In this document: piece by piece, positions 16,186-64,000 of the stretch
How positions within the stretch are numbered: the first letter of the stretch is position 1
Layout of the letters: every line of letters begins with the position of its first letter
Assembly (NCBI RefSeq): GCF_000150275.1
Contig: NW_002060943.1
Location: 11,594,878-11,658,877, forward strand
DNA: 64,000 nt
Reading direction: 5' to 3'
From: Trichoplax adhaerens
Lineage: Eukaryota; Animalia; Placozoa
Notes under the pieces: model-generated
Seen by the model: the letters and a program-made list of their open reading frames with translations, nothing else
Told to the model about the DNA's origin: nothing
The model's database searches: none
Made by a program: the position numbers and the translations under genes

Positions 16186-16210
16186 GATGACCTATTCCGT
16201 AGATTTTCAT

Positions 16211-17287
16211 CAATGTGAAGATCAAAAACAAAATCACTTCAATTACTGTTATTCCATTTCAATAATGTGCTTGCTCGATTTTAAATTAATATCATAGAAT
16301 AATTTTAGTTGAAATCACTAATAGAAGCTGTCTTACACTTGGCTCTCTATCTTACAAAGTATTCACAAAATATTCCACCTTAAAGGCGATCATGAAATTA
16401 ATGTCTTCTTTCAATGGGGAAAAAAGTGAAAATTCACAATCTCTTTGGAGGAAAAAGTGAAAATTCACAATCTCTTTCTATCATAGAGTTGACTCTACAT
16501 TTGCGCTAAAACAATAAGGCACTTCAACCTTGAACAGGCGTGTGCTGTTTGCAACGTCCAAATTAGGGGTGAGTTATCGCATTGTTGATAAGCAATGTGA
16601 AGATCAAAAATAAAATCACTTCAATTACTATTATTCCATTCCAATAATGTGCTTGCTCGATTTCAAATTAATATCATAGAATAATTTTAGTTGAAATCAC
16701 TAATAGAAGCTGTCTTACACTTGGCTCTCTATCTTACAAAGTATTCACAAAATATTCCACCTTAAAGGCGATCATGAAATTAATGTCTTCTTGCAATGAG
16801 GAAAAAAGTGAAAATTCACAATCTCTTTCTATCATAGAGTTGACTCTACATTTGCGCTAAGACAATAAGGCACTTCAACCTTGAACAGGCGTATGCTGTT
16901 TGCAACGTCCAAATTAGGGGGTGAGTTATCGCATTGTTGATAAGCAATGTGAAGATCACTTCAATTACTGTTATTCCATTCCAATAATGCGCTGCTCGAT
17001 TTCAAATTAATATCATAGAATAATTTTAGTTGAAATCACTGATAGAAACTGTCTTACACTTGGCTCTCTATCTTACAAAGTATTCACAAAATATTCCACC
17101 TTAAAGGCGATCATGAAATTAATGTCTTCTTGCAATGGGGAAAAAAGTGAAAATTCACAATCTCTTTCTATCATAAATAGAGTTGACTCTACATTTGCGC
17201 TAAAACAATAAGGCACTTCAACCTTGAACAGGCGTGTGCTGTTTGCAACGTCCAAATTAGGGATGAGTTATCGCATTGTTGATAAGC
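16211..17287. repeat. Three near-identical tandem units of ~345-380 bp (start ~16211, 16593, 16945)
   Basis: Each unit starts caatgtgaagatca and ends gagttatcgcattgttgataag; small indels between copies; unit 1 has an internal ~28-bp duplication (gaaaaaagtgaaaattcacaatctcttt). Confidence 0.95.
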
Positions 17288-34972: not shown

Positions 34973-37937
34973 TCAACAAATGATAATGTCGACTAGTTTG
35001 TTAGTACTGACCTCCTGTAATATATCGCTATTTTCAGATACAACCTGTTGGTCATCTACTAATACATCGTTATCGCCAATAAGTCGAAGCATTTTTTCTC
35101 TATCATTTACCAGAGTTAACGATGCAAATAAATGAAAGCCGCAACCAAGCATACAAACAAATGTACAAATCAATAGAGAATATCTTAGAGCGTAGGATTG
35201 AGCAACTGGGCTTTTATTTATGGTGATTGCATCCGATATCTGTCACAACATGATGTGATAAAGATTGTTTTAAAATCTTAAATAAATCATCAAAGTAATT
35301 TCAAAAGAAGAAGATAGGCTAACCGCTCCAACAATGTAAGGACTAGCAGCATCCCCGAGTAAATGACCTACAGCAATTTGAAAGGCTTCTGCTGTTGAAC
35401 GTCTGGCAGGTGGTATAGTATACTTTATCCGCAATTGGACATGTCAACGGATAAATATTAAATGAATTTAGTTATTATACGAGGTGAGCAAATGTAGCGA
35501 TTAGGTTAAATGTTGGTGTTACTGATATATCTGCGTTGCAAGACACGTACGTAACCGCCGTTAATGCACTTACCAATAATATATCTGTAATAGGAGTGGT
35601 GAGTAAGAAAATGGCGAAGCAGCCCATGAATACGAAAACCTGCGAAAATAAACCAGATTGAACGTCTTAATTTAATATGGTTGTTGCTACACGGTATAAC
35701 TTGAACTTTAGAGTAATTTTTGCATGATAATTACCCATGCTATGACTATGCTGAATTCACCAAATACTAAACAAAGGTACAGTGATATCCCAGATGTAGC
35801 CATACCAACTGCGCATACAATAGCATCACCTTCCTTAATCACATTTTCTTTTAAATAACTTGCGGCTCCAGCGCCAGTTAATACGCCAGCTATACCACCA
35901 AAGCACAGTATTATACCAAAATATAATCCGGTTCTGATGTAGAAGTTAAAGGTAAATTTAGAAATTGCACCATGTAGCTGATCGGTGCATTTAGAAGTAG
36001 AAGTACACAATTAAATATGTTATTAGTTTTATTATTTGAGTACACACTGAAGTAGCGTAGCATGTCCAGTTATGCTAAGCTGCAGGTAATATAAAGTCGG
36101 TGCCGACCAGAATGCCAGCGCTCCTATGGTAAAAAATTGACAGGCATATCCAAGACTGGAAAGAACATAAGTCCGCCTATTTACGAGTAATTGGATATTT
36201 ATCATTTAAGGCTTGTAATGATTTTAGAAAAATAAAGAATTATTACGTTTTAAGAATTGCTTTAATATCGGTTATCCAACTAGTAGCGCGAAATCCATGC
36301 CAATTGTCGGTAACATTTGAATTTACTTCTGCATTACCGCGGGGTGGATTTTCGTTAAATAAAATACAGATTACTGCTGTTACAACTCCTATGCCGGGAG
36401 AGACCTATTTGCAGTAAATTTGAGGTTAAAAGAAACGAAATTTTGAACGTAACGTTGGTATCAGCTTTGATTATTACCAACATATCGCCGTAACTACTAC
36501 ATAACTTTCGAGTACCTAACTTAACTTACCCAGAAAGCAGCTCTCCAGGTTTTTGCAGCTTTCGCTACAAATGTTCCAACTAGAAATCCCAAAGCACTAT
36601 CAATTATCAATATGTAATCCGGGATGATTAAAAAGATTTTAGTAGTTAAATGAAACTATCATAGGAGATAGGTTATGTAATGTACTGTATGTTGCAATAA
36701 CATGTAATTATTTCTATTAAACTTGTATAAATACGGAGTTATATTTATCCTTAAGGTACGTATTGCGTTATATCAATCGCGTTACTTGAGCGATAATTTC
36801 ATATTACCTTCCAATTGGAACAGCTAGATAATATAAAGCTAGTGCAGTAGTGCGTTTTCTGTCAGTGAATAAATCAGCAATAATTGTAGGAGCAATAATA
36901 CCATAACTTGCTTCACCAATTCCGCTGCATGCACGTAATAATAGGAATAGCCAGAAATGCTTTCATAGGAAATATTAGAAATTGTATGTCTGTTAATAGC
37001 TTTAAAACTAAGTAAATACTCCAGTCGATGCATTTATGAAGCATTTTCGCACGTACTATATAATATGTGGGTATGAATAATGCTATGTTCTACTACTTGT
37101 ACTGTACGTATATCAAAAACGAGATAGTAAGCATATAATTTTATTCGAGAGAAGATGAGTTAGAATTACAATTTTGGTAGAGTTACCTGTTTACCCTTTG
37201 CCACAAATGATGAAGCAAATGTTACTGATGCCCACATAAGCAGTCCCATAGACATTAAAGTATTGCGATTAAAGCGGTCTCCCAGGAAACCAAAAACTGG
37301 AGAAAAGGTCAGATAGCTAATAATAAACACACTCTGAATAATGCCCGCCTGTCCGTTATTAAGATCGAATGCTTTCTTAATATCAGGTAGAACACCTAAT
37401 GAAATAGCAATTTTAAAATGTTACAATTATTCGTGATGAATCCAAGCATAAGTATCTTCTACAGTAGCAAGGTAGAACATGAATATTCCAGAATTAACTA
37501 ATTAACTCATAAACTAGCTCGTCTGTCTTATATTTTACGTATACATTATCAGTAATTGGAATAGCTTGACAAATAATTATATCATGTAATCGCAATTGCA
37601 AGTATTATGCTGACTAATAACTCAAGGTTGTAAATAATTGTTATGAGCTGCACCTATAGCACGTCTTATATTAATTTAATTTGATATATACGAGCTGTCC
37701 AAGTTATCTTTATCAATCGGCTGTGTGAAGTATACTGCAGTGCATAAAATTGAGTAGTGTAGATACAATAGAGTACAGTACGTCTATGTTGGTCTATTTG
37801 ATCGCATTCTATAATTTAGTTCCTAAAATTCTTGTACAATTATCTCAACCTGATACTGTCACACGGTCCATGTTGTTCAGTAAGCTCATTACTGTCAAAA
37901 CAAAGACAGTAAAGATGGTTCGTTTGCTGTTAGCCAT
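34973..37937 (-). CDS. SPNS: Spinster-family MFS transporter, paralog B
   Basis: [71 protein letters not shown]. Confidence 0.88.
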
Positions 37938-39807: not shown

Positions 39808-42773
39808 TTATAAAAATAATATCAAATGAATATGGCAGAAAAACTGGCTTTGTGATATTGGCGCGTATAACCTATAGAGTACCTCGTATGGAATCTGGCT
39901 ATCTTCATTCTCAATCTGTTGATATTCAGCTCTTACAACGTTGTCTCTTATCTGTTGTAACATTTTCTGTTGATCTCTCACCAATGTTAAAGATGCTAGT
40001 AAATGAAAGCCACAGCCCAAAATGCAAGCAAACGGACAAATCAAAAGAGAGTATCGTAAAGCATAAGATTGAGCAGCTGGTCCTTCATTTGTGGTTATTG
40101 AATCTGCTATCTGCATATTAATAAAGTTTTCAAAAATTATCAAATGAATGTTTTTTAAAACTATATTATAGCCCTTATTTACAGCACTATTTGATACATG
40201 TAGCACTATCTGATCATAACTGACCGCTCCAACAATATACGAACTGGCAGAATCTCCAAGTACATGGCCCATTGCTATTTGAAAAGCTTCGGCTGTTGAT
40301 CGTCTAGCTGGTGGTACAGTGTACTACATTTGTGTAGTATAGATTGATATAAATTAAGATTTTCGATTAAAGGGATGTCCTATCGCTGTACTTACCAGAA
40401 GTATATCCGCTATAGGAGTACCGAGCATGAAGATGCTAAAGGAGGTGATAAATAGAAAGGCCTACAGGGAGATTTAAAAGAAAGTACGTATTGTAGGGCT
40501 AACAGTCACTAAGGTAATAGAGCAACATAACGTACCCATGCTACTCCCAAGTTCAGTCGTCCAAGCGTCAAACAAAGATATAGAGATATTCCTGAAGCCA
40601 ACATACTAAGGGCACATACAATAGCGTCACCTTCCATTATCTTACGTTTTTTTAAGTAATTAGCAGCAGCAGCCCCAGTTAATACGCCACATATCCCACC
40701 AACAAGTAGAATTACACCAAAGTATAACCCAATTCTAAGATCAGGTTGATCAAATAAGAGAAAAATTTTCATGATATAGGATTTTAATCATTGATACCAT
40801 TGTCATAAAATAGGAATGCTAGAGTGGTTGTCTTTGTGAATCTTGCAGACTATAGAGCATACGTACTGAGATAAAGTAGCGTAACCGGTTAAGCTAAGCT
40901 GTAAGTAGTATAAGGCGGATACAATCCAAAATGCTAATGCTCCTAGAGTAAAGAACTGGCAGGCGTATCCCAGGCTAGACAATACATATGTTGGCCTACA
41001 GCAAAGATTAGTGATTGAAAGCGATTAAATGACGATCATTCGTCAATATTCTTTCTATATTTCAGAGAATGTCATAAGATTATTACGTTTTGAGGATTGC
41101 TTTTATATCAGATATCCATGTGGTAGCTTCAAAGCCATGCCAATCTTGTGTCACGTTTGATTCTACCTCTGCTTTACCGCGTGGGGGATTTTCATTAAAT
41201 AATATGCTAAACACCGCTGTTAAAATTCCTAAACCAGGTGACACCTAATGAATAATAATTTATTATAAGGTCGAATCACGATTGCATGTACATGTATGAC
41301 ATTGTTACAAAACTACATTTCGATATGTACTTCTACTTATATACGAGTACGAATAATTGTAGTTACCCAGAAAGCAGCTCTCCAAGTTTTAGCAGCCATT
41401 GCTACAAATGTTCCAATGTATAGCCCTAGGGCTCTATCGTAATGTAAGGGTTAATATGATAAATTATATTAAATTATTGTAGTTGTTCGCAAAATAGTTA
41501 CTAATCATAAATATGAACTTTAGGATGTTGATAACGTTCAAAAAATTTATAGTGTATCCCATGCAGCCATGCTATTTTATGGGAATTTGTTAAGTTATCT
41601 TTCGTAAATTAAAATTACCCTCCAATTGGAACAGCTAAATAATATATTGCCAGTACGAGCGATCTCATTCTATTGGTAAATAGGTCAGCGATAATTGTAG
41701 GAGCAATAATACCATAACTAGCTTCACCAATGCCACTACATCCACGCAGCACCAAGAATAACCAATAATGCTAGTTAGGTGGAAAAATATGTCAAAAATT
41801 GAATACCATACGTATTTGTTTCATCTCCAGTATGCTAAATACCCGTTTCTACAAATTGTATTATTATACCATAGATACCTGATAGCCATCTGCTACGAAA
41901 GAAGAAGCAAACGTCACGGATGACCAAATAATTAATCCTGTAAACATCAAAATTTTGCGATTGTAGCGATCGCCCAAGAAGCCATAAATTAGAGCACTGA
42001 TCAAGTAGCTAATAACAAAAACAGTTTGGATTAAGCCGGCTTGGGTGTTGTTGAGGCTGAAGGCCTTCTTGATATCAGGTAAAACACCTACACGGAGTGC
42101 AACAATAAAAATAACCATTGGGTTTGACATAAAAATGGGCTTGTACTACGAACACAAAATGGAATTTTGCGCCTACAAATACTGTAATACGATGCAACAA
42201 ATGAAAGCACTCGTATCATATAGTATTTAATATGGCCAGAGCTTAATATCATGATGATTTTCTAGTATTACTGCATTGTATGAGCCAAAAATTTAGGATC
42301 TCATTGATTCGATAGGGTTTACAGTTTACATTACGAAATCCTCTTGAACTTTGATGCACGGTTGGCATTCGTAGTGTACTGTACAGTACAGTACTGTATA
42401 ATGCAGTAGTACTGACTGATATGCTGTCCTGAAGATTTTAAAACTCGCAAGTGCGCCCACTATATAGTATCAGACAGTAGGAGTACTACACTAATTTGTA
42501 AATTTAAATATTGATAATATCACTATTATCATTGTCATTACTTGGTTAATTACGTTAACTAATACTACGATGGTCATACTGTATTTGTCATTCGATAAAC
42601 GATTATTAATCTTTGATCTATTGATAGTTAAATGAATGAAGTTTTATATGAAACTATTTCTAGGCCTACTTTTGTCCATTACCTGATATAGTCACACGAT
42701 CCATGTTGTTCAGCAGGTTCATTAAGGTCAAGCTAATTACCGTACAGATAATCCGTTTATTATTTTCGGCCAT
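39808..42773 (-). CDS. SPNS: Spinster-family MFS transporter, paralog C (3' end approximate)
   Basis: [53 protein letters not shown]; closest in sequence to paralog B. Confidence 0.88.
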
Positions 42774-43109
42774 TGCAGTATGGACGAATTGGTAATGATT
42801 TGCAGAAAGGATCGCGATAGTAGCTACCTCTGCACTACAACTTAATGGTAGATATAACAATGCATCAACGACATCAGTTTCGGGTTATGCCATTTCATCC
42901 AAGCCTATTTCTCCATCGTTTTTGTGTACTGTTAGCTTATTACGCAGTGCGGATGCTGCATTGATCTGTATAATTCAGAAATGCAAACGTCTTTCTCTCT
43001 ATTTTTGAGTATTCCCCTGATGTTAAGAGATCTGCAGATTATAAGGGAGAATCAAGGCGTGTAAGTTTTTGCGATGGAAATCAATCAACTGACTGGGAAT
43101 CTTATTCAT

Positions 43110-43525
43110 TGTACCGTACCGTAACGTACTGGACTGAGTTCCTTACTCCTGACAAGGCACTAGACCTGAGAAAGGGTTCGGCTCGGTTCGGTCCGGTCCG
43201 AACCGTTATGATCTATTGAAGGCACTAAAGTACAGTATGGAAACTAAACTGCACTGTACGAAGTACTGTAAAGTATACAGTAGTACTACAGTATACTGTA
43301 CTGTACGTACTGTACTGTACAGTATGACGTCATGTAATCTGGCCTACAAAGCAATGGCTACAATACCGAGCTACAGTACAGACCTTATAACAATTCTTCT
43401 GGTACAGTGTAAGTACTGTACTGTACTGTACTGTATAGTGTTGACAGAAAAAACTACAGTACTGTACTGTACTGTACCGTAAACAAGGTGAAAATAATGA
43501 CGTTACCGTAAACAGTACAGTACAA
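43110..43525. promoter_or_regulatory. Divergent promoter region between SPNS C and D, with TACAG arrays and a GGTCC/GGTTC pentamer run
   Basis: Head-to-head start codons at 42773 (-) and 43904 (+); tactg/tacag runs; ggttcggctcggttcggtccggtccgaacc at ~43176-43204. Confidence 0.55.
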
Positions 43526-43903: not shown

Positions 43904-46900
43904 ATGGTGATGACAGCTAGGCAAGCGTATATAACAGTTGGGGTCCTCTTTCTCATCAATCTTTTAAATTACATGGATCGTTACACATTAGCCGGTACTT
44001 CAATATCATTACTGATATTACTACAGCTATCATTCATTGAACAAATTCGGTGCTATTTTATCTTTAACCTTAACTAAAAGCTAGAATTATGGTCAATCAT
44101 GGTGTGATGAACTTCACCAAATATAACTGTTAGGAAACTTTTCACTTCGATGAGCGTAGTCCAAGCGTACAGTACAGTACGACTATCAATGCTGTCCAAA
44201 ATAGCATGCTGTTACACTGTAGTTTACATAGTATTATTATCAATTTACCCGGTCTTCGCTTGAATAAATGATAAGATTAGCTGAAAGCTCAATTAAATTT
44301 ACTGGTTACAGTAGTTGATTTCCACTACCTTCTACCATGGACTACGACATTGTTAGTCCATGATTCTACATAGTACAGGTTACCATGCTTAATTGATATT
44401 ATTAGATTGTTGATGATATGCTCATAAGGATATCACATTATCATCTGATAGCATGATAAGATCAGAAATGGACGTTGTCTTCAATTTTCAATATCTGCTA
44501 AACCAGCTCACTATCCAATAGTACTTCCTCATTCATACTGTAGTCACTGTAGAACGTATATAAAAATAAATAATAAAAATAAATTTCTCTTAACGTATTA
44601 CTACTGTACAATAGGTGTACTTCCGATGATTAAGAAGGCTTTCGGACTTGATTTTGAAGTTGCTGGCCTGCTTCAGACTGTATTCATCGTTAGTTACATG
44701 TCTTTGGCGCCAATATTCGGCTACTTAGGTGATCGCTATAACAGGAAAATTATAATGGGTACTGGAATACTTATTTGGGCTGGGACAACATTAGCTACTT
44801 CTTTTGTTGCTGAAGGCAATAAGGCAAGTTACGATTGAGTCAATCTTGTGCTTTCTTTAACATATACTGTATACAGCGTGCAATATACATCTCTTAAATT
44901 TAAGTTAAACTACATACGCATCCAATGACCACTTTTAAAAGTTTCTGAACTTAACTGACGCCTGACGTATATCTTCACATACCGTAATAGCACTACTTTA
45001 CCATTGTTGTAAAACAATATTTATCGCTACAATTTTAATAGTATGGCTTATTTGTTAGTACAGTAAATTATTATTGCACTATTCGTGATGGCTTTTTATT
45101 AGAAGAAAGATTTAATTGAGTAAATCTCTAAAATTTTTAGAATGTATGGTTAATGCTGATTATTCGTGGATGTGTCGGTATTGGAGAAGCAAGCTATTCT
45201 ACTATCGCACCCACTATTATTGCCGATATGTTTAGCGGTCAGCAAAGAACGAAAATGCTAGCTTTTTTTTATTTCGCCATCCCGGTTGGAAGGTAAGAGT
45301 TAGATATCTACGTAAGATCACGGTATTTCATTTGGAAATGTTGTCAATTTTTGACTTATTGATGTAATAGCGGATTGGGCTATGTTTCTGGTTCACAAAT
45401 CGCAGCAGCAACGAAAAGCTGGAGATGGGCCTTTAGGGTATGCCGTAATTGTACACCTTAAAATATATGTAGTCCTTTAAAATAACGTTTCAATTTGTTA
45501 ACAGATAACTCCAGGGATCGCAGTTGTATTATCAGGGTTTTGTTTCTTTGTAATTACGGACCCTCCTAGAGGTCACTGCGAACAGGTGGCTCAAAATACT
45601 GAAAAGTATGAAGTTAAGGCCACAACTTGGAAAGCTGATATGAAAGCGTTACTTCGAAAGTTAGTAATTCTATTCCATTTAACTTCGATTAGGAAGGGAT
45701 ACAATAGTAAAAGTAAATATTTCATTTTGAAATCTTATCAACTTTCTTTTAAAATTACTGTATATTCAAACGCTGGTGAACTAATGTACCGAATGTACAC
45801 GTATAAAGCAAAACGTATGTTTGGACGACTATTGGCTTCACGTGTGTTGCTTTTACTACCGGTGCGTTAGCGTTTTGGGCACCCACTTATATTACTTCAG
45901 CTGAGTTAGCTCAGGGAATAACGTCTACCAGTAGGTTAGTACCAACTGTATATATTTTCAGTACGTTAACTTTACAGTTATGCTGAGATGTCATCTGATA
46001 TACATGATTAAAAATCCACTGAGTAATAAATTATAATTTTATTGACTTATGTTTTAATTTAATACAGCAAGATTTCAAGTGATTTCGAATTTCTTACAAA
46101 CTTAGTTTTCGAGATTTTTATGTGCATTAATTTTTACTTAATTTATTCTTTAATTAAAGTACTGGTTTGATCTTTGGCGCAATTACATGTGCTGCTGGTA
46201 TTACTGGAGTTCTTATCGGTGCAGAATCTTCAAGAAGATTTAGAAATCGTATACCATATGCTGATGCTATTATATGTGCAGTCGGTTTGCTAGCTTCTGC
46301 TCCATTTGTATATGTTAGTTTATTTTTGGCCGAAGTTAGTTTGCCTCTTGTGTGGGTAAGTGTTTTATAAGTCTTTAGCTTTACAACAGAAGTTTTAGAA
46401 GTTATGTTTGATGCCAATTAGGTACTGATTTTTATTGGTGAAGTTTTAATTAACTTAAATTGGACACCGATAGCAGATATACTACTGGTACGTAGATTAA
46501 AGGATATATTAGTTCCCATGAAAATACTAAAATTTTATTATGCAAATTTGAGAAATAATCTTTATAATAATATAATTTTATTATATTAGTATACTGTTCC
46601 CCCTGCAAGGCGGTCAACAGCGGAAGCATTCCAAATATTATTTTCCCATTTATTTGGGGACGCTGGAAGTCCATATCTAATTGGTGCAGTAAGTAATATC
46701 GTATGCTTATATATTTGAAATCTAGTACTGGTTTTCTAACATATCAGTCACTATTTGATATTTCTATTTGTCAGATTGCTGATTCTATCACAACCAATAA
46801 AGAGCCAGCCTTTCAAGCTTTTGCGCTGAAGTACGCCTTATCAATCACAACTTTTGTATGTGTACTTGGAGGAGCTGGATTTTTGATGGCTTCCTTTTCA

Positions 46901-47017
46901 TTAGAAAAAGACCGTAAGGAAGCTGAGTTTCAAACTGAGCATAATATTAAAAATCAGATTGAAAACTATGATGAAAGTATTCATGACGACGTGAGTATCG
47001 ATGTCAAAATCTGCTAA
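43904..47017 (+). CDS. SPNS1: Spinster-family MFS transporter, paralog D (most canonical, SPNS1-like)
   Basis: [86 protein letters not shown]. Confidence 0.9.
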
Positions 47018-48940
47018 TTGTATTGTCTATTGCATGCATACTGTGCAGGTTCTATTGCTATTGTAATTATATCAATTTAAGTCTTTAATATTTCTGTTAC
47101 TTCTTTAACTTAATAGACTGCACCTATAATCTAATGAAGATAAATCTGGTATTTTGTAAATACTTTTCTTCTAACTACTATCAACTTGTATAAGATCTTG
47201 CAAGTATCGCTGGAGTGTATTGGCGCCTGGCTTACTATTGTAAATTAAAGTGATAGTCTTTTTGGCTGATCTTCCTAGATCAATTCCTTCGTTATGTTTA
47301 TCTAGCGAAATTTATACAGTATCCGTGTATGTTATACCATATACATATTACAGTTATTGATGATGATACCCCGTTAAATTTAATATTGTTATTGCCCTAT
47401 AATAATGAGTATCTTGTTACTATATACTGTAGTTATGTATGATTGCATAGCATTTAAAAGTTTAATACACGCTAACAGAAATTTTAATAGTTTTTATCGA
47501 ATGCATTAATGCATTCTAATTAAAACTTTTACAATGTTGCCTTGCTAGGTACTGATTCGGTACTTTGCGATTGGATATTTTATTATAAGATAAGATGTAT
47601 AGTCATTAAAGAATCACTTGAATTCTTCGATTTAACGATTAGTTGTAATTACCGCTGACAGTTAATACAGAAAGAGCAATTATTGATATTTAACGATAAC
47701 GGTTTTATTTCTGCATACTATAGCTATCTAACCAAGTGATAGTTTAAATTTATAGATATCTATCGCGAAAAATATTCGAAAAATTGAAATCTCAAAGTGT
47801 GATATTCACCCCTGATGCTCGAATAACCGGGAATAAAGTTGAAATTGCAATTTTTATAAATTACTAAAGAGCCAAGCTCTCCATCGCTGCTTGAATCAGA
47901 TTCAGGGCAGTGTGATTTTATCATTATTATTTAATTATACTAGATAACGATTCATAGTAATTTTAGCTGGCTATTGTCCGGCACGTGAAATTAATATTGC
48001 ATTACATCATTATCATAGTAAACGGCCCTGATCTCTGTCGATGTCCCAGATTCTTAGCTGAAAACGTTTAAAGTGATACTGTAATACGGTACTTACTAGA
48101 TCTTATAATTTGTATAACAGTTCTAGCTGTATTTCAGCGTATAATCCAAGACAAAGATTATGGAATGAACTTACAGTACCGTTAAAACAATCTAGCAGAA
48201 AATTATTATGTTACGAATTTGAAAAGTTAGCTGTGATAGTTCTGTCAGCGAAGTGGCTCGACGTTAAGCAAGTAATAATGTCTAAAATTAAAAATCTAAA
48301 ATCTAATCTATTCAGGGATTCAATACCATTAAGTTCATATTTCGTAACCCTAATTAATTAATTAATTAATTACAGTATACCGTACAGTGTACAGTACATT
48401 AGTTACGTTTTGTACAGTACAGTATACTGTACTGTACAGTACAGTACTGTAGCACAGTGTACAGTGTACAGTATACTGTACTGTAGTCCAGTGGACACTG
48501 GACTGTACTTTAAGCAGTCAGGCTAAAACGTCAAAGTGATTTGGCGCTTCTTGGATTTGGGTAAACGCTAGAATAGTCTAGACTGCCATCAGCAAAATCT
48601 TTCAGCCATCTTTACTTATTTCATGTAAGTATAAAAATTTGAATGATGTGAAGATGTTATCGTAGCTAAATTTCTCATTTTTTTTGACCTGGTATTGAAA
48701 TTCTCAGTTCTCATTACATTGCGTTATAATATATTATCCGTGTTGTACCCCATTATATTATGTCTCTAAATTGTACAAAGTAGGAGGTCTAGTATCTATG
48801 TATTAAAAGAAGTATACTTTGAAAACGGTAGATACTTGAATGATTACGAAGTGAAGGACTGTCCCTTTTTGGCATTTTCCCTGTACTCTTTTACTAACGC
48901 ATATATTATTCTTGTAAGCAGCTTAACAGGTTTATCAAAG

Positions 48941-50714
48941 ATGTCCCGTTACAATGAATGTAGAATTTATATTGGCAATTTGCCTTCGGATATAAGAGAA
49001 AGAGATTTAGAGGATTTATTTTATAAGTATGGCAAAATTTTAAGCATCAGCCTGAAAGATAATAGGAGAGGGCCTCCATTTGCTTTCGTCGAATTTGAAG
49101 ATAAGAGGTTAGATTAGTGATGCGTGTGCTACTCTGATGCAATTTTAGGTAGAACTATTACAAATGCAGGACTGACGGATATGTATAAGTTTTATGCAAT
49201 CTTTGAAATTATGATGTAGTTATTAAAGTTTGCAATGAACTTATTGAAAGAAAGTACTATATAATGATCTGTTCCGGAGGTCTGATACAGTACTACGCTA
49301 AGGTTGACTTTCTGCTGGTACTCTCTTGTATTGTAGAATTGAAAATCGCCAAGGAAAGTTTTGTAGTATCAGATGACAATTTTTTATCCATACGTAGAAT
49401 ATTTCTACTATAGTTTTATAAGAATGAACTGATGCAACACGGTTATCCGAATTTCCGCTAGTTGCTGTTTTCACTATTACGATAGAGCTACAGATTTTAT
49501 CAAAGTAATGTGTTCGACTTTGTTTGGTGTCACTTGTGATACTATCTTAAGTGTTATAAATTAGAAGTAGCTCCATTTCGACATTGATTATAACATACTA
49601 AAATCGTGCTCGGATTAGAATGAATATCTGAATTTTTTGGCTATTGTTTGCAATTGCACAATCCTTACTAAGTCGTACTATATTTATAGGGATGCTGAGG
49701 ATGCAATTGATGGCCGAGATGGGTACGACTTTGACGGCTGCAGGTTACGCGTTGAAGCTCCAAGAGGCGGTGGTGGCGGCGGCGGAGATTATGGTCGCCG
49801 TGGCCGTGGTAATGGTAGCGGCGGCGGTAGGGGTCCAGCTAGGCGATCTGACCATCGCGTTATTGTATCAGGGCTACCGCAAACCGGTAGCTGGCAGGAT
49901 TTAAAAGATCACATGCGTGAGGCCGGAGAAGTTTATTTTGCTGACGTTTATCGCGATGGAACTGGGGTCGTCGAATTCGCTCATTATTCGGATGTTAAAT
50001 ATGCATTGAAACATTTAGATGATTCAAAATTTCGCTCTCATGAGGTTAGCGTTTCAAAGGTCTTCTAGCATGACTTTATGTACTATTTTAATTATGTGCA
50101 TATTACGCAAGCTTTCGATGATACTATTAAGTACTACTGATAGGCATTCATATTTAAATTACTGTTCATATCGCTATTGATAGGGTGAAACTTCATACGT
50201 TCGTGTGAAAGAAGATAGAGGTAGAAGTCGGTCACAAAGTCGGCGCCGATCCAGTTCTGGATCTGCTTCATCCCGGCGTAGATCATATTCTAATTCCAGA
50301 TCACCGAAACGTCGATCCCGTTCTAGATCTAAATCTCCTAAGCGGAGATCCAGATCTCCTAGACGTCGATCACATTCTAGATCCAGATCTCCTAGACGTC
50401 GATCGTATTCTAGATCTAGATCTCCTAGGCGTCGATCGTATTCTAGGTCCCGATCTCCTAGACGTCGGTCGTATTCTAGATCCAAATCTCCAAAACGTCG
50501 ATCGTATTCTAAGTCAAAGTCACCTAAACGTCGGTCGTATTCTAGATCGAAGTCACCTAGACGTCGGTCATATTCTAGATCCAGATCACCTAGTCGCCGG
50601 TCTCACTCTAGGTCTCGTTCTCCTAAGGATCGATCAAGATCACGATCAGATTCGAAATCTGGTTCTCGTTCTCGTTCTAAGTCTCACTCGAGATCACGTT
50701 CACCTTCTAAATAA
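48941..50714 (+). CDS. SRSF1: Serine/arginine-rich splicing factor SRSF1/SRSF9-like; exons 48941-49107, 49691-50045, 50184-50714 (probable 5'UTR intron from ~48625)
   Basis: RRM1 ([18 protein letters not shown]), Gly linker, pseudo-RRM with [25 protein letters not shown], long RS domain. Confidence 0.93.
50270..50620 (+). repeat. 33-bp coding minisatellite encoding ([11 protein letters not shown])n in the RS domain
   Basis: Repeated ttctagatccagatctcctagacgtcgatcgta-type units. Confidence 0.85.
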
Positions 50715-52101
50715 TGTAAACCAGCTCCATATTACACCATGTAGATTAAAGAGGACATAAGCATATTATGTAATGATATCTTTTGTAATGTTGTAATAGA
50801 TCACCTTTATCCCTTGTTTTGCTAGTATCTTAAATCAAATTTAATACCATTATATATATAAGTGTTAGGCTATGGCTCCTTGCTGCCGTATCATCTTTAT
50901 GACTGGATTACGGGACGGCTGCTCTGAAATTTTTATTGTATCATCTTAATTACATTATGTTAATATAGTAAACATATCGTAATGTTGTTGATATATTGTT
51001 ACATGAAAATTAGAAAATTTGTATTTCTTTGCCAAATTTGCCAATAACTTGTTACCTTTACTTGTTGAGATTAGGATAGTACACTATAACGTTTGGACGG
51101 ATAAACTGAATGATAGACTTAAGGACCTTTTATATTTGACTTGTGGACTTAGCATGCCTGACTACGATGTGTTGTGCGTTCGTTCATATGTTTAACAAGG
51201 ATGATGGACTTTGTCGCATCATTGGAATGACAATGTCTTATTCGGATAATGATTCGGAAGTAATAATACCGAGTGACATGATCGTACGAGGAATTCAATA
51301 CGTAATCACGTTTTGTTAGTTTATTAGTAGCTTAGGCTAGATAACTACTTATAGTGCGAAGTTTGAATTTATCCATCAGATGTGCAGTCATATGAATTGC
51401 TTTTGAAATGTTTTCAACGTATCACCGGTGTTAGGGATTTGTTTTAAGAGATTTGTGTTGATATCTCTAGCAGATAACTATAAGGATGTTGCAACTAGGA
51501 TGAACACACATGGAGGATTTAGCTAGCATCAGGATACAGTGAAGATTATCGGATTAGTTATGCATTTCATGATTTAAAAGAATAGTGAAACGAATTGTTA
51601 CGATAATCGACGCAATTGGACGTATTCAAGCACGCTTTTAGTTATGGCAGTGCTGTAACATACGACAGCAGGATATGGTAGTACGGGTATTAAGAGATAA
51701 ATTAACCTGCCAGGATTTATGGTAATGTTTGCATGTACGATTTAATTACAATATGCATTTTTGCCACAATAAAACGAATACATCTTCCACAGTAAAGTGG
51801 GGATCATTGTGTGATTTCTATGGAAAACTTAAACCAACAGTAGAGATTTCAAGGATTGCAAATAGAGAAAATTTAATGATAGTTCTATCGTTGATTTACG
51901 TTACTAACACAGTATGTAATTATTGATGTACGAGTATATGCACATCAGTTAAAATCGCAATTTATTTTCGCTTTTATCATAATGATATCGTTACATGGGC
52001 AGAATCAATCATGTCCTCTAAGTAAAAATTTGCATGTACTCTTTCTTAGATAAATTTTCAGTTCGCGTCGCATCAAGGTTAATTGAAATGTACGATTTCC
52101 T

Positions 52102-55085
52102 TCACCGTTTCTGTTCTCCTAAGTCAGTAATGCTGTCGTCGTCAATCTACGAAAATGAAATAAAATGAATTAGTCAAGTAATCCTCTACTTAAATTAGTA
52201 AATAGAATACTGTATGCAAATATTCATGTGCATAAGCAAGTACTGTAATTACTTTGTAAACTGAAACTTTTTATTATCCTAGATAGTAGCGATGCTGAAT
52301 TGGTGCGTGATTATAATTAATTTTACTGGATCATAACGTGATGGTAGTGAAGAGATAGATTTAATATGTTCTATTATGTAAATTGGTGAATGTAAACATA
52401 TGTGTTGCAAAGTGGCAGCAAAAGCTGTGTATTTCTATTGGTTTATAGGATTCATTTTACAATTACCTCTGGCCACTTTTTTTGAATGATATCAATAATA
52501 TTATCAGTTACATCGCCTTGGACAACTATTTCATCATCGCCAGTTACAGAGGAGCCACAGGAAAATTTTTGAGCGAAATACTTTGAAGCTTTCTTTAAAT
52601 CTATTTCTAAGTATAAACGATACGATAATATCACGTTACAATATTAATACTGCAGTTTTTTAATTACTTATGGCTACATACCAAAAGTTTTTAATCCAAC
52701 CACGATAGTTACATACTTTTTCTTACTTCTTTGAGCCAAAGCAATCGTTACTTGTTTTGGCCCACTTGGCTAGAAGTTACATTAAAATATTATGGATAAG
52801 AAAATCCTGCATGTATAATTGATTTATACAATAAATGGAAGGTCAATTATAAGAATATTTAAGAGATACATACTTTCTTTTTATTACGAATTGCTTTACC
52901 CCCTATTTGGTATCATCAAAATTGAGGTAGAAATAAACCGTTTTAGTATAGTGAGGAATTTACTATAAGACTTGATATACAAATGCTAGAGTTATTTAAC
53001 ATACGTGTATAAATATATTATTATCCTCACAACTAGGTATATCAATAGAAAGTCGAAATTTAAAGCTACACATCACGTAATCTTTTTGGTGATCGTGTTA
53101 TAAACTTACTTATCAAGCGCCAAAATATCTTTTAGTAAATTAATACCTTCCACATGTAAAACTTTACATGATTATACAGTATATTTAAACGCAACACTAT
53201 GATAATAATACTGATCTTACATCTTTCCGTCACAATTATTACATAACAATTACTTTATTACCTCTAGTTTGCCTTTTCTTGCTATCAGCAATATCCGCTG
53301 ATTGAAGCTGATCATTTACTACAGTAAATGATAGATTGAATAGATCATCTTAGTATACTTTCAACTCATTCTTTACAAACTGTTTAAAGTTTTACAGATA
53401 GTGCGATAAGAGTATGTGTAATAAGAGTAGTATAAAGCCTACGTTTTGCCATCATATCGTCGTGAACATTTGGTAAACTGCTCTTAAGCCATTCTTTACA
53501 CTTGTCATAGTCAACTCTAAACTCGCAGTACTGCCAAAACAGTTCAATAAGTTTTTATGAATTGCTCAACATAATTTATAGGTATCACGCACTTAATGTA
53601 ACTCTATAATTTAAACACATCTAGCAATAATTACAATACACTTTAAATTATTACCTCTATAGGAAAGGAGCATACTAAAAGTTAAAAGATAAAAAGGATA
53701 TAACATTAATAGAAGCATCACCAACATTTAAATAGTACCTAGTTAATATGCGCATAATGCATAACAAGAATTATGATGCAGTATTTCATTCAGTATTAAG
53801 GGCTGATCACTGTCTACGCTGACAGAAACAGAACTATTTACATTAACGTTCTAGATCTACACCGGTTTAATTATACTTTGCAGGCATAGAAAATCCCGCT
53901 CCTTAGAAATTTGCTGAGTAATGATATACGCGTAAAGATGTCGTATTTACAAAATGATAATTCGTATTCGCTTCATATGATTAATTTGTTACTCTATAGG
54001 GCAATTTTACGGGTATAAAAATCATACGTAGTATCTGTCCTTTACCATAGACTCCTAAAAGAAGACCTGGGCCTAACCCTCTCGTTGTAGCCTTACCGCA
54101 CACAGTACACAATGGTAAGAAACGAGAAAATTTTATTTACACGGAACTTACTGGTTTTTATTTCGTACTATGTTTGGCCTTGGTAGAAAAAATTGGGTAA
54201 GTCTATCTTTACGTGCATTACAGTGTTATGTAGTACTGTATATACACACTATAATTGAGTGATATAATTAAGGTGCGTATGTTACTATGGTCAGACAGGG
54301 ACTACTAGAGAAAGGGAATAATTTTATTTTCCGGTAGTCCTTGCTACGACAAAGATTAAGAGAGAGCTTTCGTAAGGTAGTGCATATTGCCTTAATTGCA
54401 TACGTATACGAATATAGTACCATACTGTACTCGTATAAAGATCTCGACCAGTGATGCTTGAGGCTAAACAGAAATATGATGTACCGTCCTCATAATTTTG
54501 TGTACTAATGTTTCAACTACAGTAGAAATAAAGTGGTTGATTACGTACAATGTTCTATATAGATACTGTCTATATGATACATACATTTTAGGACGGTTAA
54601 TACGTGTATAATTTAATCATTCATTCTCTACCTATTCGGATTGCCTTTGTGCAGAGGACATAGAACTACGAAAGCTAGCCACATTAGCTTAAATTATTTC
54701 GCGTTATATCATAGGAACAGATTGCAAATGTTCTTCATATCTATAGTCAAAGATGCAGAAACTTTGCTGCAAATATTATATGAAAGAAACTCAAGATATC
54801 GATATAATTTGCAATCAGCCTTTGTTTCAGAAATTGAGTGAATATGAAGAGATGATAGCAATTTAGAATTCGTCTACCACTATAAGCTTACTATCTTTAG
54901 ATTATTAAGAGTTTGATGAAATGTGTACCATCGATTATAATAATAGCTTCAGATGATAGCACACATTATTATATGTAAGGCTGTTATTGATATGAGATTA
55001 TAAATTATAATATACCTCCACAATAATGAACTTCTAAAGGGTATGATAATGTCGTATTCTGGGATTCTTCAACACTGGTAGCCAT
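52102..55085 (-). CDS. DENR: Density-regulated protein DENR/Tma22 (SUI1 domain); ~8 exons, intron 1 = 53675-55015
   Basis: [80 protein letters not shown]. Confidence 0.92.
53800..54970 (+). ncRNA. Candidate large structured ncRNA (telomerase-RNA-like) nested antisense in DENR intron 1; ends approximate
   Basis: More than 10 hand-folded helices whose non-Watson-Crick positions are almost all G-U on the + strand; CCTAACCCT at 54072-54080 within a helix-closed domain (54047-54053/54200-54206). Confidence 0.5.
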
Positions 55086-55089
55086 ATCA

Positions 55090-56095
55090 GAATGTTACTC
55101 TACTTTACTTTAGCTGGCAATCTATTTGAAAGTGCCTGCTATAAAATGGTCGAGTATGATCGAGAGCGCATAGCTGCTCTGTAGTCCGTACGAGAGGCAT
55201 CGGTGTTTACGGTATCTCTACGCTCTATAGAAATGCATTACAGTCTGCTTACAGTGTACAGTGTACAGTACAGTATTGTCACGGAGTACTGTACACTGTA
55301 TAGTACAGTACTATACTTGGAGTGATCGGATGACTTGAAACTGCATTGCTTGCTCTGTGCCGTTTCTATACTGTGTACTGTATGCGTATCTAGCATTACG
55401 TACAGTATCCTACAGGCGCAGAGCCGGCTAAGCCGTTTTAACATCTCCAAAACTGTGAATTTATACTCCCCAAGATTTAGACCTTTTATCCTACAGGTGC
55501 ACACTGCACAGCCGTTTTAACATCTCTCAACTGTAGTTTGTATAGTACTCTAAGATTTGGAGCACTATTCTGTACTGTACTGTACTGTACAAACCACAGT
55601 TAGAGTTGCTAAACGGGTTTAATGCTCAGCCGGCTTTGAGCCTTGCTGTTCGCTTAGTTCGGTTCGACTCTGAACTGGACCGGACTGGACTGGACTGGGC
55701 CGAGTCGTGTTAACGTTTCGGAAAGTACGGTACAGTATACTGTACAGTGTACTGTACAGTACAGTACCAGAAGTACTGTACTGTACTGTATCATACGGTA
55801 ATACTGTAGGTCCGGTGTTATGAGGATGATGCAAGCCCATAGTGCAGTATAGTACAGCAGCTGGAGAGCTAACCAGATTCGACTATGCTCGTATGCTGGT
55901 CTTCAGGCGACCTCGTCATTCTCGATAAATATTTGGACTTGAAGAATGGTCTAGCCAATTTGAGCACAATATTAGGGTTATTATGCTGGTATTACTGAAC
56001 TAGATGCTGTACATATTATGGTAAAGAAAGAGAGTTTTTAGATTGACGGTGAAGATCAATTCTTATCAACTGATAGACGTAGAAATTTTAGCTAG
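55090..56095. promoter_or_regulatory. Bidirectional promoter region DENR/COQ5 with TACAG arrays and a GGACT/GGACC run
   Basis: Head-to-head ATGs ~1 kb apart; tacag/ctgta arrays at 55240-55860; actggaccggactggactggactggg at ~55674-55699. Confidence 0.6.
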
Positions 56096-56099
56096 TACA

Positions 56100-58307
56100 A
56101 TGTATGCAAGAGTCGTTGCAAAATTTTATGCAGCAGTAGCAACCAAGCGATGTTCGATAGCTTGTCTAGGTGCTAGTCGTCGTGCTATTCATCAATCTCC
56201 AAGTAATCGTAACGATAGAGATAGCGAGAGAAACACAACCCATTTTGGATTTCAAACGGTTTATGAAGATGAAAAAGAAGTTAAAGGTCTGTATGATGTT
56301 ACGTCGTGTAAGAAATCGATTTAGAATTGTTCTACTGTAGTTTTCTAGACTGCAGAGTAAAATGGTGATTTGCACAAATGCTTTGATAGCCAATGCAGAT
56401 TTAGTCTTTGAAGTTAAAGTATAGTGTTGAACTGAAAATGATTCTTAAGAGCTATATCAAATTGACTATTTGCTATACGGTTTCAAATTGTGTCCAATGT
56501 AATAAATGCTTTCACATCTTTCATTTTTGTAAAACATATCATAGTGGCCGAGGTATTTCATAACGTGGCAAATAAATATGACCTGATGAATGATGCGATG
56601 AGCTTTGGTATTCATAGACTCTGGAAAGATACATTTGTTCGCCAGTTAAATTTACAGTCTGGATTAAATATAGTTGATGTTGGAGGTGGAACAGGTAAAG
56701 TGAAGTAATTTCTTTCTTCTAAAAATCCTATTATTGTAGATGATCAGTAATTTACACTCATAATAATATGCAGAAATAGTTGTAAACTCTTTGAGATCAA
56801 AAAAGTAAACATACCTGTATTATAGATTTATCGCAGTATTATTTATATCTACACAAGAGAATATATTGAAATTAAATTCGTATATGGGATAGACACTGTT
56901 TTCATGCATTTCTTTGCATTAAGCTACTAAAATTATATAGATACAATTATCATTCTTTTGATTACATATTTGTAGGTGACATATCGTTTCGGATTTTAAA
57001 ATACATGAACATTCGTAATAGCCAAAGAGTAAAGAATTCAATGGATAAAAACACGCAAGAGAATATACCAAATTGTGCAATAAGTGTTATAGATATTAAT
57101 CAATCGATGCTGGATGTAGGAAAAACGCGTGGAAAGGAATTAGGCTACCAAGGTGGTAATAAAGTAACACTGTAACTATGTTCAATAGATTAAGACTCTT
57201 GCCTGTAACATTTAATTGCAGATTTCCATTTTTCAGATGTAGTTAACATGATAGAGTATACTCAACTTAAAGAACACTATCATAAACTGTAGAAGAATTT
57301 CACTTACTTTTGCACTAGACGAAGTTGTATCAATATTGAAGAGTTAGATTGATTGAATGTACACACTCGAATATGTACAGTCACAGGTTATTTCTTTTGT
57401 ATGTAATCACCCGCAATAGCAAAATTTTATACAAAAAACCTGTTCTTTTGCAATTCATCTTGCTAAAATCCGCTGTTAAAACGTAATGCACCTCATCGTT
57501 TGTATTGAGAATTAATGTATGCTTGATGTGTGTATGCGCCATGATATTATGAAATGGCAAGTGTATGCACAATTGCTATTTTTTATACTACTAGCTAATT
57601 ATCAAATACCAATCTGATGCTGATAAATTTCTACTGTAGATATAAAATGGATTAAAGGAGATGCTGAAAATCTCCCGGTGAAGGATTCTTCTGCAGATTT
57701 AGTTACTGCTGCATTTGCTATAAGAAATGTAACTAATATCCGCAAGGTACGTATTTACAAACAACGAAATACGTACTTATTAATATACTGTATTAAACTT
57801 GATAAATTATACCATATTTAATTTGCTATTTATGAAAATTGAGAAGTATCTAATACATAGTTCATTAGGAATTGCTTTTGATATTACGTCAGATCGGACT
57901 TAAATGTGCTAAATTGCTTGTATATTATTTGCAGGCAATCTCGGAGGCTTACCGCATTTTAACTCCAGGTGGTCGATTTTCAGTTTTAGAATTTAGCCAT
58001 GTTACGAATCCATACTTAAAGAGGTGAGGCAGCACACGGTATTAGATAATTATTAAATAAGCTGATCTCTATCTTGAACGGACTATTTTACAGCTTATAT
58101 GATACATATTCATTTGAAATGATTCCTGTGATGGGAGAGATAATTGCTGAAGATTGGAAATCGTATCAATATTTGGTAGAAAGTATAAGGCAGTTTCCTA
58201 CACAAAGTGAATTTGCAGATATGTTTAAGCAAGCTGGATTTAGATTTGTAAGATTTCAAAATCTTACTTTCGGAACAGTCGCTATTCATTCTGGATTTAA
58301 AATATAG
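56100..58307 (+). CDS. COQ5: Mitochondrial ubiquinone biosynthesis C-methyltransferase COQ5 (UbiE family); exons ~56100-56286, 56545-56694, 56976-57152, 57641-57746, 57935-58023, 58094-58307
   Basis: [36 protein letters not shown] motif [35 protein letters not shown]; basic N-terminal transit peptide. Confidence 0.95.
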
Positions 58308-60392
58308 TAATTTTTGTCATTTTATTTAGCTAACGGTATTAATATTGAATTGGTATCATTTTATGGCATTAGTCAGGCTTATTTCGCCTTATATTTATAA
58401 GGTGTGATTTTTGCTACGATACTAAGTAAGATAAGCCAATTTAGTTCTTGAGCTACTACTGACGTATAGCTAATAAATATAATTGGATAGATATTTATGT
58501 TATGTAATTTCTTATAGATAATGAGTCTATTTTAGGTGTTATTTCTACTATAAATATTATAATAGGCAATGCTTCGTTGTATTCTAGACAAGAAAATTAA
58601 TCCAGACATTTGAAGATTAAAATCTTTTGTATGAATTATGAATGAGTAAATGACATTCTGTAATATTAAAGGTTAAGCAGCTACTTCCATGACGACAAGA
58701 ATCAAATATTTCAATTTCAGCTAGTATTGCAGAAGTTCATACGCGGCATTTCGAAAACACCTAACCTCTGTATTTTAATTAAAATTGTTGTTCACTTTAG
58801 TAAATTACTGAAACCTTTGCTCTGATGCTTCCCCAAGGTAATAACATTTATACCTACTTTCGTAATTGCCAATGCTATTATGAAGCGGTTTTATTACAAA
58901 AATTACGTAATCATCCTTTAATTTAATTAGTACCAAATCGATCTAGTGGTACGTCAGCTACTGCTAGTAAGAGAATAGGGCATTTTATCTTCTTTACTGA
59001 AGGACTTTTTCATCTTGGAAACATATGATATCGTATTATTACGTATAACTTAATTATTTGATATTAAACTACTCGTGCAGCTTGTGCTAGTCATGAAATC
59101 TCGAGGTGTATTAATTAATATTTCAGACCTAAAATGCTACTTGCTTCTTAATAGTTCAGTATGCTGATAACTGTACATAATATGCTTTAAGAGTAAGTAA
59201 GAGAAAGAAACGGTAAAGTTACTGCTCCTTTTGTTGGTTTCCAGATGCTATATGACGCACTTAAGATAATTCTTTACAATATGTTGACGTTTTCACCTAT
59301 GATTCATCACACAATATGTGATCTTATGGTATGTAGAAGATGGCAATATTCGAGTTCTTCGTTCTCGAGGTTCAATTGCTCAATTTAATAGTTTACGCTG
59401 TAAAAGTCTCAAGAATTTCGAAGTGATTATATAAGAATTAAGTATTTTAGTTCCATTTTTTTCATAAAAGTCCTTGCTTATGTTATTTTGAATATTTCGG
59501 CTGCGTTCACTACTGTGGTCGATCATGATCAGATTAACTAACTTAGTGTGGAATCTTCTTGGCTGGACTTGTCGAGTATCATTTGGATAGTATGAGAAAC
59601 GAAGCACAAGTTAAGCCATTCTACCGAATCTGATCTTGCGATCGTTAGAGCTTCTAGCACGTATAGTACTATAGCCGAAGTACCTCATGAATTACTCCTG
59701 ATCAACCCAACTGAATATATTGAACGGTGTCAAGTCTACTTTATGCATATACCTTACTACCTCGATGTAAAGTAAGGAGTAACGAAATATAAACGTTGAA
59801 ATGTATTAACTATAAACGTGCATGTATTCTGTCATTTATAGTCGATGAGACAATCAATATTTAACATACACATGATATTATTCAGGTGAGATAACGTAAG
59901 AATTTTACGATTCTGAAGATTTATAATGCATTACAATAACGGTGCTTTGTTGACTAAAAATTATGGTTATAAAATTGTTGAGATAGATCAGTGAAACGAT
60001 TATCAAATAAGGAAATGCTTTAGTTGCAATTAGGCTTGAAAAGATCCGTTAATTTTTTATTGAAGTAGATACAGTAAAGTTACAATCATCAATTTGAATG
60101 GCATGTACCGTATAGTACAATCTTCGATCAGCCATCAATTCATAAGAGTTCCAATATTAGTGATATTAAAACGCTAATAGGCACCACAGATTACATTCTT
60201 AAACATTCGAGCTCTATTAATGAATGATTTCTTACATGAAATTATGCCAAGTTTTTACAACTTGCAATATCGAAATGCAGTAACGGAGTTAGAATAAAAT
60301 AAGCGTACTATGCCTAGGCATATATTCACAGTCCAATTAAACTAGTTACAATCTTACTCCAAAACAAGTATAATGTTTGAGCTGGTAATAGC

Positions 60393-60740
<348 letters not shown>

Positions 60741-63319: not shown

Positions 63320-63554
63320 TACTTTTGAAGGTATCAATTTCAGTAATTTCCTCATAGGGCCTATTAGATTACGGTGGAATACGAATAAATAACATCGGAG
63401 TATTAATGATAGCTTTTGTGTTTAGTTGCTAATAATTATCCTGCTTATGTAATAGCAAGGGACTAAAATCTGTCAGTTATATCAGATTTACTTGATCAAT
63501 ATTTTATCAATTAATTACACTCGGATACCTTGTAATGTTGGATAATAATAGAAA

Positions 63555-64000
63555 AAAATACTGTACAGTACGTACCAACTGAATGTACTGTACAGTATGC
63601 TTGATTGTACGGATCTCGAGGGACAAAGTAACAATTTGCACAGTACAGTACAGTACAGTACTGTAGCCATTACAATGTACAGTACTGTACAGTATAACGA
63701 TAGGTTACAGTATACTGTACTGTAACTGAAATCAATCCAGCAGTACAATGTACTGTAACGATTTGATACAGTACTGTACAGTGTACAGTACAGTACAGTA
63801 TCGGCCTCTAATGTTAGCTTTACTAGTACAGTACAGTACAAACTCCCGTCGCTTTGCTGACGGTTTACGATAATGCTACAGTACACTGTACTGCACAGTA
63901 TCATCATACTGTACTGTACTGTACGCTAAAACTGAAATCAATCCATCCAGTACCATGTACTGTAACTAGTTGATACAGTACCGTACCGTACAGTACTACA
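63555..64000. repeat. TACAG/CTGTA array containing a ~36-bp segment shared with the MITE at 3467-4044
   Basis: aaactcccgtcgcttt(g/a)ctgacggtttacgataatg at ~63840-63876 and ~3728-3763; local duplication of aactgaaatcaatcca. Confidence 0.8.

Follow-up and report, generated by a model that had tools for sequence, protein, structure and literature searches.

A single placozoan telomerase RNA (TR) has been published, that of T. adhaerens (397 nt, ABGP01000509.1:21,534-21,930; Logeswaran et al. 2021, PMC8480181). According to the accessible portions of that report, the candidate came from a covariance-model search without activity validation, and it carries a 12-nt template, P1.1, P2.1, a compact pseudoknot with a U loop, a canonical CR4/5 and an H/ACA domain. 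The same portions describe active TRs from the acorn worm and the apple snail only (the sponge TRs being inactive), set the lower bound of animal templates at 1.5 repeats, and give a published template of 9 nt for the sponge Sycon. Hertel et al. (2009) had found no TR in Trichoplax, and the classes 7SK, U7, Y and vault were also still missing at that time (accessible text of PMC2655684). TR duplicates with changed templates are described for Andrena bees (10.1101/2025.04.29.651168) and TR paralogs for Mimulus (PMC10723376), in the parts of both papers that are openly readable. For Trichoplax, no report of a second TR was found in the literature searched, in which subscription journals were thinly covered.

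The window (the whole stretch of 64,000 nt of Trichoplax DNA analysed here) contains a locus that resembles such an RNA in outline. A sequence-only reading had proposed a telomerase-like template and pseudoknot domain at 54047-54206, and the locus holds more of the expected parts than that reading had noted: TATA, template, pseudoknot, junction, H box and ACA follow one another in TR order over ~430 nt, although a working core is unlikely. The features referred to below, with all helices predicted, are as follows:

52102-55085, minus strand: DENR gene, 178 codons in 8 exons; the TR-like locus lies on the opposite strand
53675-55015, minus strand: DENR intron 1, 1,341 nt (joint 53674/55016 in runs X16 and X17)
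54014-54020, plus strand: TATAAAA; 54018 A>C in the second allele (X10, X13)
54046-54097, plus strand: stretch with a diverged copy elsewhere (52 nt, 10 mismatches, C at the position of 54076)
54047-54058, plus strand: P1-like 5' arm, predicted to pair with 54193-54206
54072-54080, plus strand: template-like 9-mer CCUAACCCU, 1.5 copies of the TTAGGG complement
54081-54126, plus strand: P2.1-like hairpin (pairing probability 0.86-0.96; z -1.31 alone), with 54101 C>T in its loop
54122-54201, plus strand: possible pseudoknot (P2b 54122-27/54161-66, U-rich loop 54131-38, P3 54147-59/54188-201)
54262-54400, plus strand: three-way junction of CR4/5-like outline (closing helix 54265-88/54377-98, long hairpin 54290-350)
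54359/60-54370/71, plus strand: marginal 4-bp, P6.1-like hairpin, no U in its loop
54405-54437, plus strand: 14-bp hairpin burying both candidate H boxes (54406, 54414)
54439-54473, plus strand: short hairpin, then ACA at 54468-70; a poor H/ACA-like 3' end

The order of P1, template, P2.1-like hairpin, pseudoknot of U tract and A run, three-way junction, H box and ACA is that of the T. adhaerens and other basal-metazoan TRs as given in the accessible portions of PMC8480181; the CR4/5-like junction, the candidate H boxes and the ACA stand at TR-like distances from the template domain, and the length of the locus is comparable to that of the published TR of the same genus. Two smaller likenesses to the published sequence, as far as that source displays it, can be picked out by eye: the P3-like strands of both read CUNG followed by five U, with an A run and then a matching tetramer opposite, and the 5' end of each begins with CAU, 26-29 nt before the template. 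The locus is nevertheless not the published TR, an identity that was considered and rejected because the aligned sequences differ throughout. The published RNA has a 12-nt template where the locus has 9 nt, and 66 nt between H box and ACA where the locus has 48 nt without a lower stem; by eye, the two have no long stretch in common over the part of it that could be compared. Unlike the basal-metazoan TRs, the locus has a disfavoured boundary stem and P3, a P6.1-like loop without U and a polymorphic template, and it lies antisense in an intron of DENR. Like the Andrena (10.1101/2025.04.29.651168) and Mimulus (PMC10723376) paralogs, it would be a further TR-like locus whose template departs from the canonical one by a single base; those paralogs, as their accessible text has it, are gene copies that correspond to telomeric repeats found in DNA reads, whereas the variant here is allelic.

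The host gene can be named from its product and its joints. RNA contigs reveal six splice joints of the minus strand between an SR-protein gene and COQ5, and the exons that these connect encode a protein with Pfam DENR_N and SUI1 domains. The introns are GT..AG and leave an open frame, with lengths of 1341, 124, 124, 359, 104, 75 and 320 nt (that of 359 nt was inferred from the sequence), so that intron 1 far exceeds the other six (75-359 nt). The TR-like locus is antisense within this intron. Processing from the host intron is therefore impossible for an RNA read in the TR-like direction, and such an RNA would need a promoter of its own.

All of the letters on which the proposed template domain was built are present: the P1 strands (54047-53/54200-06), CCUAACCCU (54072-80), the adjoining hairpin (54081-126), the U tract (54155-63), the A run (54187-92), both crossing pairings and the TATAAAA at 54014-20. 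Their folding was borne out in part. The hairpin next to the template forms with high probability, and so does P1 in the isolated 160-nt domain (P 0.92), but the latter falls to just 0.28 in a 570-nt fold. The boundary stem (54054-57/54068-71) is there in letters and reaches P <=0.01 in three nested folds; the crossing pairings are likewise complementary, but P3 has P <=0.01 in nested ensembles. The U-A.U triples that had been envisaged find no place in the register proposed for them, which leaves no base between the P2b and P3 strands and hence no U-rich loop; its U tract serves as a Watson-Crick strand, so that no third strand is available for triples. An alternative register supplies a P3 of ~14 pairs and a U-rich loop, and it consumes the 3' arm of hairpin 54081-126; it thus competes with the P2.1-like hairpin and with P1, and its pairs have P <=0.02 in nested ensembles, which are blind to pseudoknots. 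P1 itself extends over 54193-97 and there competes with P3.

The best fold has an energy of -37.2 kcal/mol, whereas the nested cores of the originally proposed one reach -16.5 and -18.7, with stabilisation by the pseudoknot or by protein excluded from all three values. The 160-nt fold at 54047-54206 has a z of -1.31 and is matched or beaten by 73 of 355 windows (drawn from ~399 non-overlapping 160-nt windows, up to 56,640). The template, which was expected to be single-stranded, is predicted to be partly paired, with a mean unpaired probability over 54072-80 of 0.41-0.52; its expected conservation is contradicted by a natural allele (54076 A>C). A paired template and an unconserved one had both been named by the sequence-only reading as results that would refute it, and both are seen as far as prediction and allele data reach. 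No permutation of the telomere repeat of at least 10 nt occurs in the window; the Trichoplax repeat is presumably TTAGGG, as the published TR template also implies.

The 3' part gives a different picture. The stretch at 54262-54400, whose ends were picked by hand, folds at -41.3 kcal/mol with z -4.23 on the plus strand against z -1.67 on the minus strand, and has 13 G-U pairs among 51 together with one A-C mismatch on the plus strand; of 3,193 windows scanned, 72 show a strand asymmetry of at least 15 kcal/mol, and its z is the lowest of these (-5.8, 20 shuffles). A fold confined to the plus strand points to selection on a plus-strand RNA and is unexplained by neutral intron DNA, and by these folding models the fold is a real structure of the sequence. 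As a CR4/5 it has the junction outline alone, without the U residues of a canonical P6.1 loop: the centroid lacks the P6.1-like hairpin, which lies at a distance of 8-9 nt from P6 and whose loop reads AGAG or GAGC. In acorn-worm telomerase, U-to-C changes in the P6.1 loop abolish activity (accessible portions of PMC8480181). Nor does the 3' end make a box H/ACA domain, the H boxes being inside the 14-bp hairpin and a P7a-like lower stem being absent, and 54420-54473 folds no better than shuffled sequence (z +0.28).

Taken singly, the 5' motifs are no more than chance supplies. Three template-like 9-mers were counted in the window against 1.58 expected (200 shuffles), the exact template motif is present in 14.5% of 200 shuffles, and some 2,600 such 9-mers would be expected in 105 Mb, which we take to be the size of the Trichoplax genome (the DNA contig sets hold 90-126 million letters). 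Their combination was examined with descriptors that join P1, an adjacent hairpin and a pseudoknot, and the TR-like locus passes the strict, medium and loose versions alike. The loose version is matched by 9 per hundred sites (40-230 look-alikes per genome) and the medium version by 1.4 per thousand, or 0.6-1.1 per ten thousand with a U-rich loop required, which gives 0.15-4 look-alikes per genome by chance. The strict version had no match at 125,000 real sites, taken after masking, or at 375,000 simulated ones, and an independence estimate puts it at 1-3 per million sites, or <0.01 look-alikes per genome; this rarity counts against coincidence, with the caveat that the strict version was fitted post hoc to the locus itself. 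Arguing in the same direction is the arrangement of the parts in TR order together with the TATAAAA, which has 59 copies on both strands of the window and a chance of 0.007 in a given 15-nt slot.

Natural variation was read from contig sets of sequencing runs (labelled X9, X10 and so on). The stretch is present in 20 of the 24 listed runs, from seven studies and under two organism labels, and eight runs were compared with the window, of which five cover 54076 (X20 has no coverage there). Within the species the template is not invariant: 54076 is C in three of the five covering runs (X10, X13 and X17, from three studies and both organism labels) and A in X9 and X16. Runs X10 and X13, both guessed to be DNA and differing in study and organism label, share four changes that mark a second haplotype, namely 54018 A>C, 54026 A>G, 54076 A>C and 54101 C>T, and the RNA run X17 has the changes at 54076 and 54101. 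The second allele has thereby lost both the TATA and the template, the change at 54076 falling in the middle of the latter; the motif with C is still 1.5 copies of a hexamer, and as a template it would specify GGGGTA-type repeats rather than TTAGGG.

Differences in the long contigs are concentrated in 54011-54206 (four of nine in X10, four of seven in X13), so that there is no sign of constraint on this part; the 160-nt domain holds two in each run against ~0.6 expected, the ranges having been chosen after the data were seen. Between 54102 and 54658 X10 has no difference and X13 a single one, in which 4 nt are inserted after 54300, inside the long downstream hairpin, and this gap in substitutions is not significant because the local rate of difference is low. 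A broken allele need not speak for both copies of a gene: the accessible text of Kamm et al. (PMC6057997) gives a Trichoplax heterozygosity of ~1% and one broken allele beside an intact one, and since such alleles can be sheltered in clonal lines, a bad allele alone is compatible with function of the other. As a side observation, an A>G allele at 53514, in exon 3 of DENR, changes Val to Ala.

A further point of reference is a diverged second copy, found on another contig of ~8.6 kb in both DNA runs (X10 record 2, X13 record 9). It matches 54046-54097, a likeness with a chance of ~3e-5 by a fixed-length binomial estimate, and at ~19% it is far more diverged than the alleles (<1%). Downstream of it, GTACA, AATG and AATTTTAT of 54105-54136 recur by eye in the same order, with the 3' arm of the hairpin absent. 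The C-bearing copy makes C the likelier ancestral state at 54076 by parsimony (roughly 13 to 1); the change probably ran from C to A, as far as this comparison of sequences can tell, and the perfect template would then be a recent change in one haplotype. That the locus derives from a duplicated element is likewise likely. The copy begins at 54046, close to the 5' end (54045) that the sequence-only reading had expected, and such a start speaks for a real RNA. Separately, the flanks of the copy read like a 5' splice site ~20 nt before it and a 3' intron end ~30 nt after it.

At low depth, RNA contigs cover the middle of intron 1 at 54011-54865 (X17), 54187-54797 (X16) and 54355-54914 (X20), forming an island there in three of the four runs known or guessed to be RNA; among the pieces listed for X9, several reach 55054 and continue into DENR exon 1. 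The intron contigs carry neither strand nor ends and extend past the predicted ends of the TR, and any of three sources would account for them, namely DENR pre-mRNA, library DNA and a nested transcript; stretches of the intron that no RNA contig covers were given no weight. No Rfam family reached its gathering score across the window; at lower scores, 52500-56000 gave 16 weak matches, none of them in intron 1, and 53950-54600 gave three weak, unrelated ones. At E 10 or better, telomerase models matched in neither range and snoRNA models not in the latter. Two runs of relatives (X22, X23) contained no match at 80% likeness, which does not prove that they lack the locus, and metagenome contigs contained no stretch with the exact 21-nt pattern; a scan of the latter for the COQ5 exon returned 80 loci, all at <=75% identity and hence none placozoan, and these were left out of the comparison.

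Several kinds of known element were compared with the locus and set aside. An intron-encoded box H/ACA snoRNA or scaRNA would share its hairpins and its ANANNA and ACA motifs in the intron of a housekeeping gene, but the structured strand is plus where DENR is minus, no Rfam family matches, and the boxes are not at the feet of two pocketed hairpins; this class was rejected on the strand and on the lack of a snoRNA model at E 10 or better, and its minus-strand version on the lack, by eye, of an H box at the right place. RNase MRP or P was rejected by eye because the P4 consensus is not matched and because the locus looks single-copy in the run contigs, whereas two near-identical Trichoplax MRP copies are published (accessible text of PMC2655684). 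A small ORF was considered by eye and dropped, and a mitochondrial insertion was rejected, no high-depth contig having matched.

The locus is probably not a working TR. The explanation that we favour, to which we would give about an even chance, is that its TR likeness arose by coincidence in an intron element that is duplicated and rich in hairpins. It is favoured because the template is polymorphic and predicted to be partly paired and its C probably ancestral, because the boundary stem and P3 are weak, because the P6.1-like loop lacks U, and because no Rfam or telomerase model matches. The locus would be a low-copy, hairpin-rich duplicated element in DENR intron 1, in one allele of which the 9-nt ‘template’ would have arisen by a single C-to-A change; the element would leave with the spliced DENR intron and be degraded, and no telomere DNA would be templated. 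Taken on their own, the coincidence and the lack of function are each likely. The unclassified interspersed repeats of Trichoplax, with a repeat content of 6.6-6.7% given in the accessible text of PMC6057997, are similarly low-copy, dispersed and hairpin-rich with diverged second copies; the locus differs from them in having one other copy at 80% likeness, a strand-specific fold, and no terminal repeats or target-site duplication identified. The rarity of the strict pattern, the TR-like order and length and the fold confined to the plus strand would be accounted for by an old duplicate of the TR gene, nested on the opposite strand of DENR intron 1 under a TATA promoter of its own and now decaying, so that the outline is kept and telomere synthesis lost. 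Such decay would fit the change of both template and TATA in one allele and the P3 and CAU likenesses seen by eye, and it has a parallel in the Andrena duplicates (10.1101/2025.04.29.651168, in part). We nevertheless consider it unlikely: drift of this kind would be expected to erase helices too, the C of the diverged copy makes the perfect template look derived rather than ancestral, no long stretch is shared by eye with the published TR, and the locus has neither a U in the P6.1 loop nor a lower stem in the H/ACA part.

A slightly smaller prospect again is that of another structured non-coding RNA, transcribed on the plus strand from the TATA box, of which the junction at 54262-54400 would be the working part (likeliest as a protein-binding scaffold) and the 9-mer incidental. 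The modelled fold, with its z of -4.23 on the plus strand only and its 13 G-U pairs, is what such an RNA would lead one to expect, and the lack of substitutions at 54102-54658 in X10 and X13, the mid-intron RNA contigs and the Trichoplax RNA classes missing in 2009 (PMC2655684, as far as accessible) would suit it as well. Against these points stand the lack of an Rfam match, the TATA changed in one allele, the insertion in the long hairpin, the insignificance of the substitution gap at the low local rate, and contigs that have neither strand nor ends, stop at varying points and in X9 reach DENR exon 1. It is improbable that a second, deeply diverged TR gene lies antisense in DENR intron 1, with TTAGGG and GGGGTA templates in its alleles and a further decayed copy elsewhere. 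No better is the chance of a second TR at work, in which the allele of the window would template TTAGGG and the other would make a GGGGTA variant unless its TATA change silenced it. To its credit are the full order of TR-like parts, a template that at 9 nt or 1.5 repeats lies at the animal lower bound and has the length of that of Sycon (PMC8480181, in part), and the ability of heterozygous clones to shelter a bad allele (PMC6057997, in part); but the template is polymorphic with C likely ancestral, the C allele occurs in an RNA contig (X17), the boundary stem has P <=0.01, the pseudoknot faces two stronger helices, the P6.1 loop has no U and the H boxes are buried. Least credible of all, and very improbable, is that Trichoplax has its true TR here and that the published candidate is wrong: the latter did come from a covariance-model search without validation, but from what PMC8480181 openly gives, the locus fits worse on template, P1.1, P2.1, pseudoknot, CR4/5 and H/ACA, and its template is polymorphic.

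On the favoured explanation of a coincidental look-alike, the locus matters as a caution and no more: one substitution is enough to create a template-like 9-mer among plausible helices, and allele data expose it. A diverged second TR, if real, would mean that in a basal animal, one whose TR is of the H/ACA type, the TR had been duplicated and its template had drifted; a TR-derived locus would be a rare animal TR duplication outside insects, and its variant-template allele would offer a clear test, namely GGGGTA repeats at chromosome ends. Regardless of where it came from, the junction at 54262-54400 on the plus strand merits attention as a possible RNA of Trichoplax that is not yet annotated.

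The window belongs to Trichoplax by its last COQ5 exon, which over 71 aa shows 100% identity with T. adhaerens TRIADDRAFT_20328; the remaining 119 matches listed are at <=76%. Gene order in the window from 44600 to 60662 is a spinster-like transporter (plus), an SRSF1/9-like gene (plus, 48941-50716), DENR (minus), COQ5 (plus) and a dynein light chain (minus, 60396-60662). In human 12q24.31, SRSF9, DYNLL1 and COQ5 are adjacent and DENR lies in the same band, and the order of SRSF, DENR, COQ5 and dynein light chain is possibly an ancient linkage. Within DENR intron 1, 54720-54816 (97 nt) is an inverted repeat that is imperfect except for its outermost 10 bp (z -2.76), MITE-like in outline, at which a target-site duplication was not seen; in intron 2, the minus strand at 53529-53629 weakly matches a C/D snoRNA model (ceN69, E 8.5), which is at chance level. 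A blastn comparison of intron 1 with the window returned palindromic and simple-repeat matches only. Palindromic TACAG/CTGTA simple-repeat clusters lie at 3400-4700, 18200, 38200, 42400-43500, 48400, 55250-55800 and 63550-64000, often close to gene starts, and are matched by RNA contigs of many other loci. Three diverged segments (28200-30250, 35000-37000 and 39900-41800), spaced by ~4.8-7 kb and 65-80% alike, are probably a tandem gene family, and 16188-17287 is a tandem array with units of ~339-380 nt and 94% matches.
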